From Acidobacteriota bacterium (lineage in GTDB: Bacteria; Acidobacteriota; UBA6911; RPQK01; JAJDTT01), in contig OZ253580.1 of the NCBI GenBank assembly GCA_965263035.1, forward strand, positions 3,328,001 through 3,392,000: a stretch of DNA of 64,000 nucleotides, in the 5' to 3' direction. The first letter of the stretch is position 1. Each line of letters opens with the position of its first letter. Shown here piece after piece: positions 6,077 through 34,229 of this stretch. The position numbers were made by a program, and so were the translations under genes. The notes beneath the pieces were generated by a model, which saw nothing but the letters and a program-made list of their open reading frames with translations, was not told the DNA's origin and did not search any database.

Positions 6077-7692
6077 ATCCAGCCATCGACATCACCACTG
6101 AACAGCGAGAGACGATTCTCGCTTTGCTAGAAGAACACTTGCCGGATACGGCCGCGTGGATCTATGGCTCGCGCGTGAAGTGGACCTCGCGACCACAATC
6201 CGACCTTGACTTGGTAGTCTTTGCAACCCCAGAGCAGGGTGGCCGAGTTGGTGATCTCCGGGAAGCGTTTGAGGAAAGTAACCTATCGTTCCGTGTGGAT
6301 CTATTCGTTTGGGACGATGTGCCGGAGGCATTCAGGAAGCAAATTGAACTGTCGCATGTGGTGCTGGTAACCGGAAAACGTACGCGCTTCGGCAAAGGGG
6401 TTCCGTTTGGAGCGAACAAGTGGCAACGAGTCGACCTTAACGATGTCGTAGAAATCTTCGACGGACCCCATGCCACACCGAAAAAGACTCGTAGTGGGCC
6501 GGTCTTCCTCGGCATTGGCAACCTGAGTTCCGGTCGCATTGATTTAACAAAAACGGAACATCTCAACGAGGAAGACTACGTACAGTGGACGCGTCGGGTA
6601 ACTCCTAGTCCAGGTGACGTCGTTTTCTCCTATGAGACTCGAATTGGCGAGGCTGCACTCATTCCTGCTGGCCTTCGGTGTTGCCTTGGTCGTCGGATGG
6701 GGTTGCTTCGTCCGAAGGGCGATAAGGTAGATCCTCGTTTCCTTCTTTACGCGTATTTGGGCCCCGGATTTCAGGACATATTGCGATCTCGAACGATCCA
6801 TGGCAGTACGGTGAATCGGATTCCATTGACCGAGATGGGGAAATTCCCAATCGAGATCCCGGCAACCATTCGCGAACAACGTAGGATTGCCCAAGTCCTA
6901 GGCACGCTGGACGATAAGATAGAATTGAGCCGGCGTATAAACGAGACGCTGGAGACGATGGCGTGGGCTTTGTTCAAGTCCTGGTTCGTCGATTTCGATC
7001 CCGTCCGAGCCAAAATGGACGACCGGGACCCCGGTCTGCCTCAACATCTTGCCGACCTCTTCCCCAACCGGCTCGTAGAGTCTGAACTTGGCGAGATCCC
7101 GGAGGGGTGGGAAGTGAAGACGCTCCGGGAATGTACTCACCTTACGATGGGACAGTCTCCCCCGGGACGCACCTACAACGAACGTGGTGAAGGTCTACCA
7201 TTCTTCCAGGGCCGAACTGACTTTGGCTTTCGTTATCCTTCGAATCGAAGATTCTGTTCTGTTCCAACACGAATTGCTCAGCCCGGGGATACGCTGGTCA
7301 GTGTGCGCGCCCCGGTCGGCGATATCAACATGGCCTGGGACCGTTGTTGTATTGGACGGGGCGTTGCTGCCCTGCGCCACAAGTCAGGTACAGCGTCCTT
7401 CACCTACTATTCTGCGCGGAAGATTCAGGTAGCCCTCCAAGAATACGAGCATACAGGGACAGTGTTTGGGGCCATCAATAAGGGCCAGTTTGAAGCCCTA
7501 TTGGTCATTGAACCACACACCAGAATCATTGACGCATTCGATGCATATTCTGGCGCTATAGATGCGAAGATCAAGTCGAATACTCGCGAATCCCGAGTTC
7601 TTGTGGCCCTCCGCGACACATTGTTACCGAAGCTGATCTCGGCCACAATTCGGGTTCCGGAGTCTCACAAACAAACCGGTGCGTTTGTATGA
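6067..7692 (+). CDS. hsdS: Minimal nucleotidyltransferase (MNT) domain fused to type I RM specificity subunit S
   Basis: N-terminal ~100 aa carry GSRVKWTSRPQSDLD (GSX10DXD) and FRVDL; then two TRDs with conserved EQRRIA..LDDKIE, LFKSWFVDFDPV, GEIPEGW and LRDTLLPKL; no stop between the parts. Confidence 0.9.
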   Translation: MGVDPAIDITTEQRETILALLEEHLPDTAAWIYGSRVKWTSRPQSDLDLVVFATPEQGGRVGDLREAFEESNLSFRVDLFVWDDVPEAFRKQIELSHVVLVTGKRTRFGKGVPFGANKWQRVDLNDVVEIFDGPHATPKKTRSGPVFLGIGNLSSGRIDLTKTEHLNEEDYVQWTRRVTPSPGDVVFSYETRIGEAALIPAGLRCCLGRRMGLLRPKGDKVDPRFLLYAYLGPGFQDILRSRTIHGSTVNRIPLTEMGKFPIEIPATIREQRRIAQVLGTLDDKIELSRRINETLETMAWALFKSWFVDFDPVRAKMDDRDPGLPQHLADLFPNRLVESELGEIPEGWEVKTLRECTHLTMGQSPPGRTYNERGEGLPFFQGRTDFGFRYPSNRRFCSVPTRIAQPGDTLVSVRAPVGDINMAWDRCCIGRGVAALRHKSGTASFTYYSARKIQVALQEYEHTGTVFGAINKGQFEALLVIEPHTRIIDAFDAYSGAIDAKIKSNTRESRVLVALRDTLLPKLISATIRVPESHKQTGAFV

Positions 7693-29740: not shown

Positions 29741-31436
29741 CGCCGGCGGGGAAACGCCGGAAATCCACATCGAGATGGATGTCGAGGTCCCGGTCCGGGA
29801 CGGCCTCGTCCTCCGCGCCAACGTCTTTCGGCCCGAGGGCCCCTCTCCCTGTCCCGGCCTGCTGATGCGGACCCCTTACGGGAAGCCGGACAGCGGGTTC
29901 GAACCGTTCGTGCGGGCCGGCTACGCGGTGGTCGCCCAGGACAGCCGCGGCCGCTATGCCTCCGGAGGGGAGTACGTCCCGTTCACGGTGGAGCGGACTC
30001 AGGATGGGGAGGACGGGTACGACAGCGTGGAGTGGCTGGCCCTGCAGCCTTGGTGCAACGGCAAGGTGGGCACCTTCGGAGTCTCGTACAACGGCTGGAT
30101 GCAGTGGTCCCTGGCCCGTCTCCGGCCGCCTCACCTGGTGGCCATGTGCGCCAATTCCATCCCCCTGGAGATCACCGACCTGGACTGGTGGGGCTCCTTC
30201 CGTCCGGGCCGCCGGGTCAAATGGTGGATGACCAACATCGCCCCGGACCTGCGCCGCCGCCATGGGTTGCCTCCGCCCCACACACCGGAGCAGGCCGAGG
30301 AGATTTGGGACGGTCAGGAGCAGATGCGCTGGATCTGGTTCCTCCCCTGGATGGATCTTCCCAGGTACCTTCCACCGGGGCTTCGGAAATATGCTCGGGA
30401 CTGGTTCCAAGACCCGGCCCGCCGCTGCTGGCGATTCGACCGGGTCCACCACGAGGTGGAGGTCCCCAACCTGGACTTCAGCGGCTGGTACGATCACTGC
30501 AACGGTTCCATGGGACACTTGCAACTGATGCAGAAGCACGCCCGTACTGCGGAGGCGCGCGAACAGACCCGGCTCATCATCGGACCCTGGAATCATAAGC
30601 ACCTGGGGGAGCGCGCCCTCGGCTCCATCGACTACGGACCCGGGGCCCAGGTCGACCTGAGCCAGGTGATGATTCGCTGGTTCGACCATTGGCTCAAGGG
30701 AACCGGAGACGGACTGCGGCGGGAGGCGCCGGTGCGGTACTTCGTCATGGGATCGCAGGTTTGGAAAGGGGCCCAGACTTGGCCTCCACAGGATGGCATC
30801 GGCCAGTGCAAGTTCTATCTGGACAGCGACGGCGACGCCCATCGTCCGGACGGCTCAGGCAGTCTGCTGGCGTCGGCTCCATCGCGGTCCGGTGGAGATG
30901 CTTACGACTACGATCCCCAGGATCCGGTCCCGACGCTCTGGAGCCCGGAGATGTTCACCCAATCCTCCGATCGCTCCGCCCTCTCCCATCGCCGGGACAT
31001 CCTGAACTACCGGACCGGTCCCCTGGAGCAGGAGGTGGAGGTGGTCGGCTACCCCGAGGCCGTCCTCTTCGCCTCGACCTCGGCCCGGGACACGGACTTC
31101 TTCGCCCGGCTCGTGGACGAACATCCCGACGGCCGGGCCTTGGACGTCGGTTACGGCATGGTCCGCGCCCGGCACCGGATCTCCATGGATCGGGAGGACT
31201 TGGCGACTCCGGGTGAGATCGTCGAGTACCCCATCAGGCTGGGACCGACCGCCTGCCGGTTTCTCAAAGGACATCGAATCCGGGTGGAGATCACCAGCAG
31301 CGACTTCCCGAACCACGATCGCAACCACAATACCGGAGGGAACGATCTGGCCGAGACCGAGCTGGTGACGGCCCGTCAGGTGATCCACCACTCCCGGAGA
31401 AACCCTTCCCGGATCGTGCTTCCAGTAGCACGTTGA
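29733..31436 (+). CDS. CocE/NonD family hydrolase
   Basis: RTPY, QDSRGRYASGG, GVSYNG nucleophile, GWYD, GPWNH, SSDFP. Confidence 0.9.
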   Translation: MPDAGGETPEIHIEMDVEVPVRDGLVLRANVFRPEGPSPCPGLLMRTPYGKPDSGFEPFVRAGYAVVAQDSRGRYASGGEYVPFTVERTQDGEDGYDSVEWLALQPWCNGKVGTFGVSYNGWMQWSLARLRPPHLVAMCANSIPLEITDLDWWGSFRPGRRVKWWMTNIAPDLRRRHGLPPPHTPEQAEEIWDGQEQMRWIWFLPWMDLPRYLPPGLRKYARDWFQDPARRCWRFDRVHHEVEVPNLDFSGWYDHCNGSMGHLQLMQKHARTAEAREQTRLIIGPWNHKHLGERALGSIDYGPGAQVDLSQVMIRWFDHWLKGTGDGLRREAPVRYFVMGSQVWKGAQTWPPQDGIGQCKFYLDSDGDAHRPDGSGSLLASAPSRSGGDAYDYDPQDPVPTLWSPEMFTQSSDRSALSHRRDILNYRTGPLEQEVEVVGYPEAVLFASTSARDTDFFARLVDEHPDGRALDVGYGMVRARHRISMDREDLATPGEIVEYPIRLGPTACRFLKGHRIRVEITSSDFPNHDRNHNTGGNDLAETELVTARQVIHHSRRNPSRIVLPVAR

Positions 31437-31463
31437 CCGAAAAGTTTTCCCGCCAACGCGGCT

Positions 31464-31517
31464 GATTTGCTATTAATAGCGAAAATCGACGCCAGTTTTG
31501 CTATCAATAGCAAAACT
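31464..31517. repeat. Two adjacent AT-rich palindromes
   Basis: GATTTGCTATTAATAGCGAAAATC and AGTTTTGCTATCAATAGCAAAACT. Confidence 0.6.
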
Positions 31518-31770
31518 TTCCTAGGAGGGGACTTCCCACCCTTTGTCAAGGGGGAATCGACCCCCAGCGGGAGGCCCCGCTCTGGTCGCTACGCTCCCTT
31601 CACCGGGCCTCCCGCTGGGGGTCGCCTTTTCGCTGGCCATAGACCTCCTGGACCCTTCTCGGCCCGGAGCCCATTTGGTACCGGATGGACGCCCCGTGGG
31701 CCTCACCCTCGAGCTCCTGCAGCGGCCGCACACGGGCGAAGCCTGGAGTGGACCTCGGCCCGGATCGGGA

Positions 31771-33018
31771 TCAAGCGGCACGGCGCTGTCTCGCATGATT
31801 CGGATCGAACAGGGTCTGGTCTCGCAACATGGCGCAGGCCACCGCCAGCAGACGGTCCGCAACGGATCGCAGGGCCCGGGCATGGCCGTGACCCCGCTCG
31901 CGCAGGGCATCGTACTTGGCCCGGCTGATCGGGTCGTGTTGCACGGCCACGCGGGCCCAGTGGTAGGTCGCCTCGCGCAGCCGAGGATGAACGGCTTGGC
32001 GGCGAACGACAAGGGTGTGTTTGCCGGAGCGCCGGGTCACGGGGGCGACCCCGCACAGACAACGCAAGGCGGCGTAATCTCTGCGGCGCAACGGATCGGA
32101 GGCTTCCGAGAGCAGGGTGGCGAGGACGATTCGGCCGACCCCGGGCAGGGAGGCGAGGATCGCCACATCCCGCCTCGGTCCTGGGGACCCCGGCGCCGAC
32201 TCGCACCGCTGGTCCCAAGCCCGGATCAGACGCTCGACCTGACGACCGGTGTCCTTGAGCTGGCTCTGCACCAGGGCGAGGCGCTCCGCGAGGCTGGCGA
32301 CGTGAGCCACCGCCACCTCGGTGGTGCCGGCGGCGACGGGGAAGGCCGGAACCCGCAAGCGACGCAGGACTTCGCGGGCGTCGATTCGCCGGATCCGATG
32401 GTCTTTCAACACCTTGGCGACCCGGCTCGGGCGCAGCTTCTGGGCGTCGTCCGGCGTCGGGGCCAGCTTCCACACTTGCAGCACCCAGGGCTCGGCGAGA
32501 TTCTCGCTGAGGTCCAGGAACTGCGGATAGTAGCGCCAGAGTTGATCGCGGAGGCGGTTGAGAAGCCGGGTCCGCTCGCGGGTCAACTGCTCACCCAGTC
32601 GTGAGGACTCGCGCAGCTGGATCACCTCAGAAGCGACGGGTTTGAGACGGCGCAAGCGATGGCCGTCGGTTCTCAGCGCGTCGGCCAGCACCCGGGCATC
32701 GCGGCGGTCATCCTTGGCTCCGGCCGGCGAGAAGCGGTCGCGGAATCGATCCAGCTGCGTCGGATTGATGGCATAGACGGCAAAACGCCGCTCCATCAGG
32801 AAATCCACCACCGGACCGTGGTTCACTTCAATCGCCACCGAGACGGCCTGTGCACTCGTTCCCGTCTGCTGCAGAATCCAGTCGGCCATCTGGGCCAGGC
32901 CCGAACCGCTGTGCGGGAAGCTCCGCTGTCCCCGACAGGTGCCTTGCGCGTCCAGCACGCAGACTTGGTGCGCCTGGGACGCCCAATCGACTCCCACAAA
33001 CCATTGACTCTGTTTCAT
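31771..33018 (-). CDS. IS110 DEDD recombinase/transposase
   Basis: FVGVDWAS, AIE, AKDDRRDA (DEDD), LPGVG, GVAPVTRRSGK (Tnp serine); GGAGG RBS. Confidence 0.95.
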   Translation of the reverse strand: MKQSQWFVGVDWASQAHQVCVLDAQGTCRGQRSFPHSGSGLAQMADWILQQTGTSAQAVSVAIEVNHGPVVDFLMERRFAVYAINPTQLDRFRDRFSPAGAKDDRRDARVLADALRTDGHRLRRLKPVASEVIQLRESSRLGEQLTRERTRLLNRLRDQLWRYYPQFLDLSENLAEPWVLQVWKLAPTPDDAQKLRPSRVAKVLKDHRIRRIDAREVLRRLRVPAFPVAAGTTEVAVAHVASLAERLALVQSQLKDTGRQVERLIRAWDQRCESAPGSPGPRRDVAILASLPGVGRIVLATLLSEASDPLRRRDYAALRCLCGVAPVTRRSGKHTLVVRRQAVHPRLREATYHWARVAVQHDPISRAKYDALRERGHGHARALRSVADRLLAVACAMLRDQTLFDPNHARQRRAA

Positions 33019-33053
33019 CCCGACCCTCCCAGTGTTTAAATGGACGTCGGGCC

Positions 33054-33250
33054 GCCGCGATTCGGATCGGTTCCTGTACTGGTGCTCAGAGGCGCCAACT
33101 TCCCACCGGGTCTCCATCGCGGCTACCGGCCGGGGCACGAATCCCCTCCAGGTGCTCCGAGGGCACAGGGACATTAGGGTCGCTCCCGGCCAGGTGGCCC
33201 TCTTCACCCACCGTGGGTGAAGTCCCTTAAAGGGTGCTCGTGAAGGGTAC
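33054..33250 (-). ncRNA. Predicted IS110 bridge RNA in the left non-coding end
   Basis: Two stem-closed internal loops; their guide segments match the element's target and donor junction sequences (see findings). Confidence 0.75.
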
Positions 33251-33293
33251 AGGGACATTTTTGTCCCCCATTCTTTCTTGCCCAAACGTCAAT

Positions 33294-33324
33294 GGGAGTT
33301 CGGCGGTTAGAAATCGCCGCTCCC
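33294..33324 (-). repeat. GGAG-type REP copy
   Basis: GGGAGCGGCGATTTCTAACCGCCGAACTCCC on the minus strand. Confidence 0.6.
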
Positions 33325-33404
33325 AACTCGAAGGGCTCGGGGCAGACGTCTGGAACGGTACTTGGCGTTTCCGATAGACTACCCGCTGAACCCAGGCGCC
33401 TCCC

Positions 33405-34229
33405 ATGCCGGCTCCGAAACTCGAATTCAGGAAAGTGACCGGTCATTGCGGCGCCGAAGTGCACGGCATCGACCTTGCCCGGCCGCTCGGCGCGGAGGTG
33501 GTGGACGTTCTCTCCAACGCACTGGCCGAACACTGCGTCCTCTTCTTCCACGAACAGTCCATGACTCCGGCCCAGCAGAAGGCGCTGGGCCGCCATTTCG
33601 GTGAATTGCACATTCATCCGGCGTGGCCCCGGTTGGTCGACGGCCATCCGGAAGTCATGGAAATCTACGCCGACGAGAACACCCGCCGGATCGCCGGGGA
33701 AGACTGGCATTCGGATGTCTCCTGCGACCGGGAGCCGCCGCTGGGGACGATCCTGCAGATGCTGGAGGTGCCGCCGGTAGGGGGCGATACCCTGTTCGCC
33801 AACATGTACGCGGCCTACGAGTCACTGTCGACGCCGATGCGGCGTTTGCTGGACGGAATGACCGCGATCCACGATGGAGAGTATGTCTACCGGGGCCGTT
33901 ACGATGGCGCCGACGATGAGGGGAAGACCTTCCCCAGATCGGAGCATCCCGTCGGCCGGACCCATCCGGTGAGCGGACGCAAGGCGCTCTTCGTCAACCG
34001 CCTCTTCACGACCCGTATCGTTCAGCTCTCGAAGCGGGAGAGCGACGCGGTCCTCGGTTTTTTGGTGGAGCACGCCGCGAGCCCCATGTTCCAGTGCCGG
34101 TTCCGCTGGCGTCCCGGATCGGTGGCGTTCTGGGACAACCGCTGCGCCCAGCACTACGCCCTGTGGGACTATTATCCGAACCGGCGCCGCGGGTTGCGCG
34201 TCACCATCAAGGGCGATCGGCCGCGTTAA
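33405..34229 (+). CDS. TauD/TfdA 2-oxoglutarate-dependent dioxygenase
   Basis: WHSD, GGDTLFA, HP..RTHP.SGRKALFVN, WDNR..QH. Confidence 0.92.
   Translation: MPAPKLEFRKVTGHCGAEVHGIDLARPLGAEVVDVLSNALAEHCVLFFHEQSMTPAQQKALGRHFGELHIHPAWPRLVDGHPEVMEIYADENTRRIAGEDWHSDVSCDREPPLGTILQMLEVPPVGGDTLFANMYAAYESLSTPMRRLLDGMTAIHDGEYVYRGRYDGADDEGKTFPRSEHPVGRTHPVSGRKALFVNRLFTTRIVQLSKRESDAVLGFLVEHAASPMFQCRFRWRPGSVAFWDNRCAQHYALWDYYPNRRRGLRVTIKGDRPR

Follow-up and report, generated by a model that had tools for sequence, protein, structure and literature searches.

The window analysed here, a 64,000-nucleotide stretch of the genome of an Acidobacteriota bacterium (contig OZ253580.1, positions 3,328,001 to 3,392,000), contains on its minus strand, at positions 31531-33251, an IS110-group insertion sequence of 1721 bp without the core (about 1.7 kb), which in all probability is an intact element that moves by bridge-RNA-guided recombination. 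We found that the region upstream of its recombinase gene has the anatomy of a bridge RNA with two loops and four guide segments, that the secondary structure of this region is conserved among relatives, and that the target guides covary with the DNA flanking the element, both within its own genome and across the family. The element is a well-supported new example of the IS110 bridge-RNA family, a kind of system that is already known, and potentially encodes a reprogrammable recombinase. An earlier reading of the window from its letters alone (hereafter the sequence-only reading) had proposed such an RNA; all eight coordinate pairs and all four guide segments that it gave are exact when read on the minus strand, while a few of its longer strings had to be amended, as described below.

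The element extends from TGTAC at its left end (33251) to the terminal GGTGGGAAGT at its right end (31531); these boundaries are the points at which the likeness among the four copies in the same genome stops, and junctions across the family concur with them. The recombinase gene (31771-33018, minus strand, stop codon counted in), recognised by Pfam domains and by alignment to IS621 motifs, encodes 415 amino acids with an N-terminal RuvC-like domain, DEDD_Tnp_IS110 (PF01548, residues 8-165, E = 3.2e-36), and a C-terminal Tnp domain, Transposase_20 (PF02371, residues 286-369, E = 1.1e-17). Its open reading frame (ORF) is intact, and residues D11, E64, D104, D107 and S331 align with the GID, IEA, DxxDA and ESG motifs of the IS621 recombinase (chain 8wt6_A), in which the roles of the catalytic residues have been described (PMC11208158). 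Among solved structures the protein matches only the recombinases of IS621 (E = 1.3e-7) and ISCro4 (E = 2.2e-7). The left end of 233 nt (33019-33251) holds both RNA loops and the right end of 240 nt holds only a palindrome and a -35 box; because the RNA sits in the left end, the element is assigned to the IS110 group and not to the IS1111 group.

Predicted bridge RNA and guide segments

The predicted bridge RNA of about 190 nt (33050-33238, minus strand) has its 5' end placed from the -10 box and its 3' end set at the end of the outer stem, with consensus structure and covariation as its basis. Its four guides follow the strand rule published for IS621, with the first loop specific for the target and the second for the donor; according to Durrant et al. 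(PMC11208160), the loops read in the sense of the top strand on their 5' sides and as its complement on their 3' sides. All features of the RNA listed below lie on the minus strand. Near the 5' end, sequence reading and folding indicate a stem-loop, CUUCACCCA-CGG-UGGGUGAAG (33202-33222), which precedes the 5' strand of the stem closing the target-binding loop (33182-33193, partner 33126-33136). The sequence-only reading had drawn the closing strands of this loop at 33190-33180 and 33129-33140, and they are present there.

Within the target-binding loop, the left target guide AAUGUC with the core-binding CC (AATGTCCC in DNA, 33168-33175) has the same sense as the left flank AATGTC-CC, and the identity between the two that the sequence-only reading had noticed holds up, since guide and flank covary (in the copies L003, L004 and L005 of the same genome and across the family). 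It is followed by a hairpin (GUGC...GCAC, 33152-33166), which had also been noticed, with strands at 33166-33163 and 33155-33152, and then by the right target guide GGAGG with the core-binding GG (33143-33149), which is complementary to CC-CCTCC (31530-31524) and covaries with the right flank across the family. Here the earlier reading had taken a longer segment, GGAGGGGA (33149-33142), as complementary to a right flank TCCCCTCC. The position and the pairing stand, but the T of TCCCCTCC is the last base of the element (31531), and the A at 33142 therefore represents the handshake position outside the right target guide. The putative handshake guide AU (33141-33142) occupies the same position as in IS621 (PMC11208158); its A pairs with T31531 and its U can form a wobble pair with G31532. 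Across the family the bases at this position are AC in 66/83 loci, AU in 12, AA in three and AG in two, and both AC and AU are thus complementary or wobble-complementary to the GT that closes the element.

The donor-binding loop is closed by a stem with its 5' strand at 33116-33123 and its partner at 33054-33061 (GCCGCGAT and ATCGCGGC, found where the sequence-only reading had put them). The left donor guide GGUGGGAAGU (33098-33107) is identical to the right end of the element at 31540-31531, so that GGTGGGAAGT, read at 33107-33098, recurs at the tip exactly as had been reported. A further hairpin (33082-33095) separates it from the right donor guide GUACA with the core-binding GG (33073-33079); the DNA form of the latter, GTACAGG (33079-33073), is complementary to CC-TGTAC (33253-33247), again in agreement with the earlier reading. 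The next two bases, AA (33072-33071), occupy the donor-loop handshake position.

In the window copy and in most relatives a U and then the GU of the hairpin stem come directly after the left target guide (33167-33164, compared with 33251-33248), so the RNA matches the left junction as it stands after insertion (left target-CC-TGT) across 11 nt. This match could be a coincidence or a bottom-strand handshake, and covariation cannot decide between the two because the left end is invariant in the family.

Guide-flank covariation and conserved structure

The 6.2-Mb genome contains four full copies of the element, namely the window copy itself (L001, 100% identity), L002 (99%), L003 (85%) and L004 (83%), as well as a 172-nt left-end remnant (L005). 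Comparison of these copies reveals that the left target guide and the left flank change in step. L001 and L002, with the RNA segment AAUGUCCC, have the left junction AATGTCCC followed by TGTACCC; L003 and L004, with the RNA segment AAAGCCGC and the flank AAAGCCGC, have AAAGCCGCC followed by TGTACCC; and L005, with the RNA segment AAAGUCGC and the flank AAAGTCGC, has AAAGTCGCC followed by TGTACCC. The guide/flank pairs are accordingly AAUGUCCC/AATGTCCC, AAAGCCGC/AAAGCCGC and AAAGUCGC/AAAGTCGC. The right junction GGGTGGGAAGTCCCCTCC is common to all four full copies, which also share the right-target segment GGAGGGGA, followed by U or C; the two variants of the right target guide, GGAGGGGAU and GGAGGGGAC, are the same except for the second handshake base.

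The target is a hairpin resembling repetitive extragenic palindromic (REP) sequences. Its left half (GGGGGAC, loop AAAAAT, GTC; 33254-33269, minus strand) adjoins the left end, and the rest of its 3' arm lies beyond the other end of the element, at 31524-31528. The whole hairpin, GGGGGAC-AAAAAT-GTCCCCC, is present in about 30 empty copies in the same genome, and it scores as intrinsic-terminator-like on the plus strand, behind a peptidase gene. The empty sites AAAGTCGCCCCTCC (33 occurrences) and AAAGCCGCCCCTCC (two occurrences) both fit the form left target-CC-CCTCC, and the site predicted for the window copy, AATGTCCCCCTCC, has two empty occurrences. The REP-like family as a whole comprises about 110 sites in this genome with the form GGGNGAC-loop-GTCNCCC-CTCC, terminator-like on the opposite strand. 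It is divided into subtypes with AATGTC and four, five or six C's, with AAAGTCG and with AAAGCCG, and each subtype of the insertion sequence has a guide for one of them.

The remnant L005 (1501-1673) is a solitary left end with an intact target loop, the guide AAAGUCGC of which matches its flank. It breaks off within the donor-loop hairpin at the terminal CAGTGTCC, directly followed by CCTCCC, the usual right target. This arrangement has the appearance of a deletion that joined an internal GT-CC site to the true right junction, and the recombinase itself may have made it; the half-match recombination described in a recent preprint (bioRxiv 10.64898/2026.08.31.748434) offers a comparison.

We scanned one genome per species, which yielded 297 relatives, and used the best 80 of the 297 (58-82% amino-acid identity) with 1.5-kb flanks. 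These 80 come from Acidobacteriota, Vicinamibacterales, Bryobacterales, Rhodothermales, Longimicrobiales and some Proteobacteria, the closest among them being two metagenome-assembled genomes of Acidobacteriota, and their upstream regions align into the same architecture. The correspondence between guides and flanks can be read directly from individual loci. On the right side, the right target guide regions CUCAAAUGGAC (L033), CUGAAAAGGAC (L055), CUCCUGUGGAC (L027) and CUGGGAGGGAC (L065) stand against right flanks in which the AGT of the element's tip is followed by CCATTTGG, CCTTTTC, CCACAGGA and CCCTCCCC, respectively. On the left side, each of GCGAUCCC, GGGGUCCC, AUCGACCC and GUGAUAGCCC agrees with the flank of its own locus.

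For a permutation test, our sequence patterns retrieved all four parts from 40/84 loci; L032 and L075, in which the right flank starts with CCTGTAC, were removed, and the remaining 38 loci were reduced to one per distinct target loop, which left 18. The longest match of the left target guide with its cognate flank has a mean length of 7.83, compared with 4.11 for non-cognate flanks, and the right target guide gives corresponding values of 6.89 and 4.12; in neither case was the observed sum attained in any of 20,000 permutations. Controls on the wrong strand stay at background, with means of 3.17 and 2.17. As some of the 18 loops are related to one another, the non-cognate background is higher than it would otherwise be, which makes the test more conservative. 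The sequence-only reading had named the absence of covariation between loops and flanks in homologs as the outcome that would tell against a bridge RNA, and covariation is present for both target guides. In the two removed loci the right end is followed by CC-TGTAC, after which the sequence differs from their own left ends; their flank thus resembles the right half of the donor and not the target predicted by the right target guide, which may reflect insertion or recombination at a half-matching site.

The secondary structure was analysed in 34 distinct left ends in which CCTGTAC and the right donor guide could be recognised (duplicates were taken out, and L027 was passed over because of its length). 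It was modelled as five helices, i.e. an outer stem, two closing stems and two loop hairpins, the outer stem enclosing two arms that each consist of a stem, an internal loop and a hairpin. Across the 29 pairs 96.5% of cells are paired, compared with 86.0% in shuffles, and 14 of the 29 stem pairs exhibit compensatory changes on both sides; the covariation score is 0.294 versus 0.118 in shuffles, none of 500 of which scored as high. Sliding the partners by 1-3 columns reduces pairing to at most 45.1%. The shuffle control leaves the relatedness of the sequences in, and the slid controls keep it too. Among the individual helices, the stem closing the target loop (helix 2) has 11 pairs, six of them changed on both sides, with 99.2% of cells paired; the hairpin in the target loop (helix 3) has 94.1% of cells paired; the stem closing the donor loop (helix 4) has seven pairs, two changed on both sides, with 95% of cells paired; and the hairpin in the donor loop (helix 5) has four pairs, three of them changed on both sides.

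Covariation across homologous left ends, which the sequence-only reading had proposed to combine with folding as a check, is therefore found, while the sequence folded on its own does not differ significantly from its shuffles (z = -1.59; 12 of 200 of them fold equally well). The minimum-energy fold of the single sequence pairs the guide segments with one another, and we did not take it as evidence. Since single-sequence folding is not significant, the case rests on the comparative tests.

The matches within the window were also compared with chance. GGTGGGAAGT occurs three times in the window against an expectation of 0.16, and none of 100 shuffles gave three occurrences; the third one, at 7106, lies in unrelated sequence and was rejected as a chance match. 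When the four loop sides were shuffled separately, the observed longest junction matches were reached in 2, 244, 11 and 244 of 20,000 shuffles, and in none of 20,000 jointly, with junction strings that are offset by one base from the final junction model.

Core dinucleotide and alternative explanations

The core of the element is CC. It lies at 33252-33253 in the left junction (left target-CC-right donor) and at 31529-31530 in the right junction (left donor-CC-right target), in both cases on the minus strand. Right ends were located by an exact copy of the nine bases of the left donor guide downstream of the ORF, which was found in 63/82 loci with the motif, and AGT is followed by CC in all 63; CC precedes TGTAC at the left junction in 54/57 loci. 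Because G is the last base of the left target in L003, L004 and L005, the C's before TGTAC number exactly two there, and the right junction of L033 reads AGT-CC-A. The sequence-only reading had placed the core within GTCCC and distinct from the CT of IS621, and both points hold. Its target and donor strings identified the right sites, each with a miscounted C, because with a CC core the target contains five C's (AATGTC-CC-CCTCC; four had been given), the donor contains two (GGTGGGAAGT-CC-TGTAC; three had been given), and the T of TCCCCTCC falls to the element.

Other cores were considered and rejected. With a CT core the left donor guide would end 3 nt short of the core, and L003 and L004 would not fit; TC and GT are absent at the left junctions of L003, L037, L073 and L095; and a donor junction with three C's is ruled out by left targets ending in G and by right flanks such as AGT-CC-ATTTGG. 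The CC core is paired by the right target guide, the right donor guide and the left target guide, and by the left donor guide through wobble at most. Searchable literature texts contain no mention of a CC core in IS110 elements, although the supplementary tables of PMC11208160, which were outside the search, may list such elements or the clade itself. The core passages available from the bridge-recombinase literature refer only to CT, or to the engineered cores AT, GT and TT; Durrant et al. (PMC11208160) confined one analysis to guides for a CT core, which implies other cores in their data.

Several observations weigh against guided transposition of the window copy. At the core position of the left donor guide (33097-33096) the RNA reads UG, which mismatches CC and offers one wobble pair at best. 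The donor-loop handshake AA may likewise be unfavourable, the first of the two A's being able to pair with T31531 of the donor itself; the equivalent change in IS621, G166A, strongly reduced recombination (PMC11208158), and either the window copy may be inefficient on this account or the IS621 rule may not be transferable. Most relatives have GA at this position, matching the TC end of their left targets. From the core-binding CC of the left target guide to the loop hairpin, the linker is 0 to 2 nt long, depending on the family member (among 34 sequences, 1 nt in 16, 2 nt in seven and 0 nt in four, with seven unscored under the strict criterion). A left target guide one base out of register in the window copy was considered and dismissed, its register being the commonest in the family (16/34). 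Furthermore, the six-C variant of AATGTCCCCCTCC is the commonest, with 22 copies, compared with the five C's that the model predicts. Comparison of four runs, as contigs that show presence only, with positions 31000-33800 revealed neither a circle junction nor a joint that skips the element. A search of Rfam with positions 31000-34000 at E up to 1 gave no match to a bridge-RNA family; chance-level matches to a microRNA model, on the right-end palindrome, and to one Streptomyces sRNA model were discarded.

Several of these observations fit a reading in which the element is a genuine IS110 with a bridge-RNA gene, but this copy is inert or nearly so, a fossil whose guides still read its junctions. 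We consider this unlikely, although it is the likeliest of the alternatives. The missing circle and element-skipping joints agree with it, as do the potential of the donor-loop handshake to pair with the donor of the element itself, a condition under which IS621 is blocked (PMC11208158), and the improper pairing of the left donor guide with the core; moreover, only two copies of the window subtype are present in 6.2 Mb, and two perfect sites are unoccupied. However, the ORF is intact with its five catalytic positions kept, and L001 and L002 are 99% identical at two loci, each in its cognate site, a sign of recent transposition. Many multi-copy relatives also share these handshake and left-donor-guide features.

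At the core position of the left donor guide, UU was found in 48, UC in 12, CU in 10 and CC in one of 82 loci, and with UG, UU, UC or CU the donor core has no Watson-Crick reading on the bottom strand. For IS621, pairing of all four guides with the core is described (Durrant et al., PMC11208160). It is a serious possibility, if short of a probable one, that the clade is a natural lineage of CC-core bridge recombinases in which the core is read asymmetrically, on the target's two strands and only on the top strand of the donor (in Watson-Crick terms).

Far less probable is the explanation that the left-end structure is a 5' untranslated region that regulates the recombinase gene, with protein-bound sub-terminal repeats behind the matches to the ends. 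The structured region does lie directly upstream of the ribosome-binding site and the start codon, and the donor-side segments hardly vary within the family, which is how protein-binding sites would behave. The target segments, however, covary strand-specifically with host flanks outside the element, a relation that protein-binding repeats cannot explain, and the wrong-strand controls are at background. Least probable of all is that the identity of guide and flank is a leftover of the origin of the copies, by gene conversion or by duplication of a block including the flanks: the targets do belong to a repeat family, so the flanks would be alike under any mechanism, but the flanks outside the REP differ between the copies in this genome, the guides differ exactly where the REP subtypes differ, and the relation holds in unrelated genomes with unrelated targets (CC-ATTTGG, CC-TTTTC, CC-ACAGGA).

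Proposed mechanism and comparison with known systems

If the element moves by bridge-RNA-guided recombination, as we favour, excision would join the right end, the CC core and the left end into a circle. The joined ends would set a TTGACA -35 box (31544-31549, minus strand), located in the right end 13 nt from the tip of the element, 17 nt upstream of a TACCCT -10-like box in the left end (33244-33249, minus strand), and transcription from this promoter would yield the RNA of about 190 nt. The 17-nt spacing, which includes the first two bases of the left end, arises only when right end, CC and left end are joined; a sigma-70-like promoter was sought in the integrated copy and none was found. 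A hexamer is present at the fixed distance of 13 nt throughout the family (TTGACA in 20, TTGCAA in 18 and TTTACA in eight of 63, the rest being others). This layout agrees with the junction promoters described for IS110 elements (PMC11208160). By analogy with IS621, a tetramer of the DEDD/Ser recombinase would then exchange strands at the CC core, the circle would insert into AATGTC-CC-CCTCC, i.e. the 3' arm of the terminator-like REP hairpin, and the AU after the right target guide would pair with the last bases of the right end following strand exchange.

RNA libraries contain sequences from this region. In one metatranscriptome a 225-nt contig with zero differences spans 33059-33283, i.e. 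the bridge-RNA region and 30 nt of the left flank, and in an RNA library of a second study a 170-nt contig from a variant copy spans 33055-33224; the ORF is partly uncovered in both. Such contigs record presence only and are weak evidence for transcription, as DNA may contaminate the libraries, and they cannot show RNA ends. The IS621 bridge RNA is reported to be weakly expressed from integrated copies (PMC13626964).

Among the remaining features of the element, a perfect 20-bp inverted repeat with a 27-nt loop (31558-31624, both strands) is located in the right end, with the stop codon on one side of it and the -35 box on the other; it may act as a terminator or an insulator. Sequences 76-86% identical to it are present at three other places in the genome (L007, L009, L010). 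The donor site is flanked by a short sub-terminal inverted repeat, with AAGGGT (31543-31538) as its right-end half and ACCCTT (33248-33243) as its left-end half, and sub-terminal repeats of this kind, 2-3 bp long, are mentioned for the IS110 group by Durrant et al. (PMC11208160). The element is bracketed by an S15 peptidase gene (3' end at 31436, plus strand) and a TauD-family gene (start at 33405, plus strand). For annotation, it accounts for the 1.7-kb insertion between these two genes and identifies the REP family as its landing site.

Bridge recombinases are under development for programmable insertion, inversion and excision of DNA, and mechanistic work on them rests almost wholly on IS621 and ISCro4, both of which have a CT core. 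A distant orthologue with mapped guides, a CC core, a GC-rich hairpin target and a differing contact between donor and core is a useful point of comparison and a candidate for testing how far the rules derived from IS621 apply. Should the enzymes of the clade be active, the rule that all four guides pair with the core would not be general, and the clade would offer orthogonal editors for G+C-rich sites with a CC core. The genome studied here also provides a case of natural retargeting, in which three variants of the left target guide match three REP subtypes.

Comparison with the known systems places the element as follows. With IS621 from E. coli (PDB 8wt6) it shares the DEDD domain and the Tnp domain with a catalytic serine, the RNA in the left end with the target loop followed by the donor loop, a 2-nt core at both junctions, a handshake dinucleotide directly behind the right target guide, a -35 box placed in the right end with a -10 or -10-like box in the left, and a REP target. 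It differs in its distant protein (E = 1.3e-7 over two partial stretches; 415 amino acids compared with 328), in the CC core in place of CT, in a right target guide of 5 nt and a left donor guide of about 10 nt, in the lack of Watson-Crick pairing between the left donor guide and the core, and in a donor-loop handshake that matches its own donor. ISCro4 (IS622) from Citrobacter rodentium (bioRxiv 10.1101/2025.05.14.653916; PDB 9t56) belongs to the same family, is described with the same guide nomenclature and has a similarly distant protein (E = 2.2e-7), but its core is CT and it is active in human cells, whereas the present element is known from its sequence. ISPpu10 from Pseudomonas putida (bioRxiv 10.64898/2026.03.19.712850) resembles our element in inserting into one conserved intergenic REP with a stem-loop beside the paired target, in a natural mismatch at the interface of donor loop and donor, and in a junction promoter. 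It differs in its CT core and in that the role of its stem-loop has been shown experimentally, whereas the hairpin is only observed here and the insertion point falls inside its 3' arm. Finally, the IS1111 group (PMC11208160) shares the recombinase superfamily and an RNA that guides recombination, but has the RNA in the right end, the longer of its two ends, and long sub-terminal inverted repeats, whereas in the element described here the RNA is in the left end.

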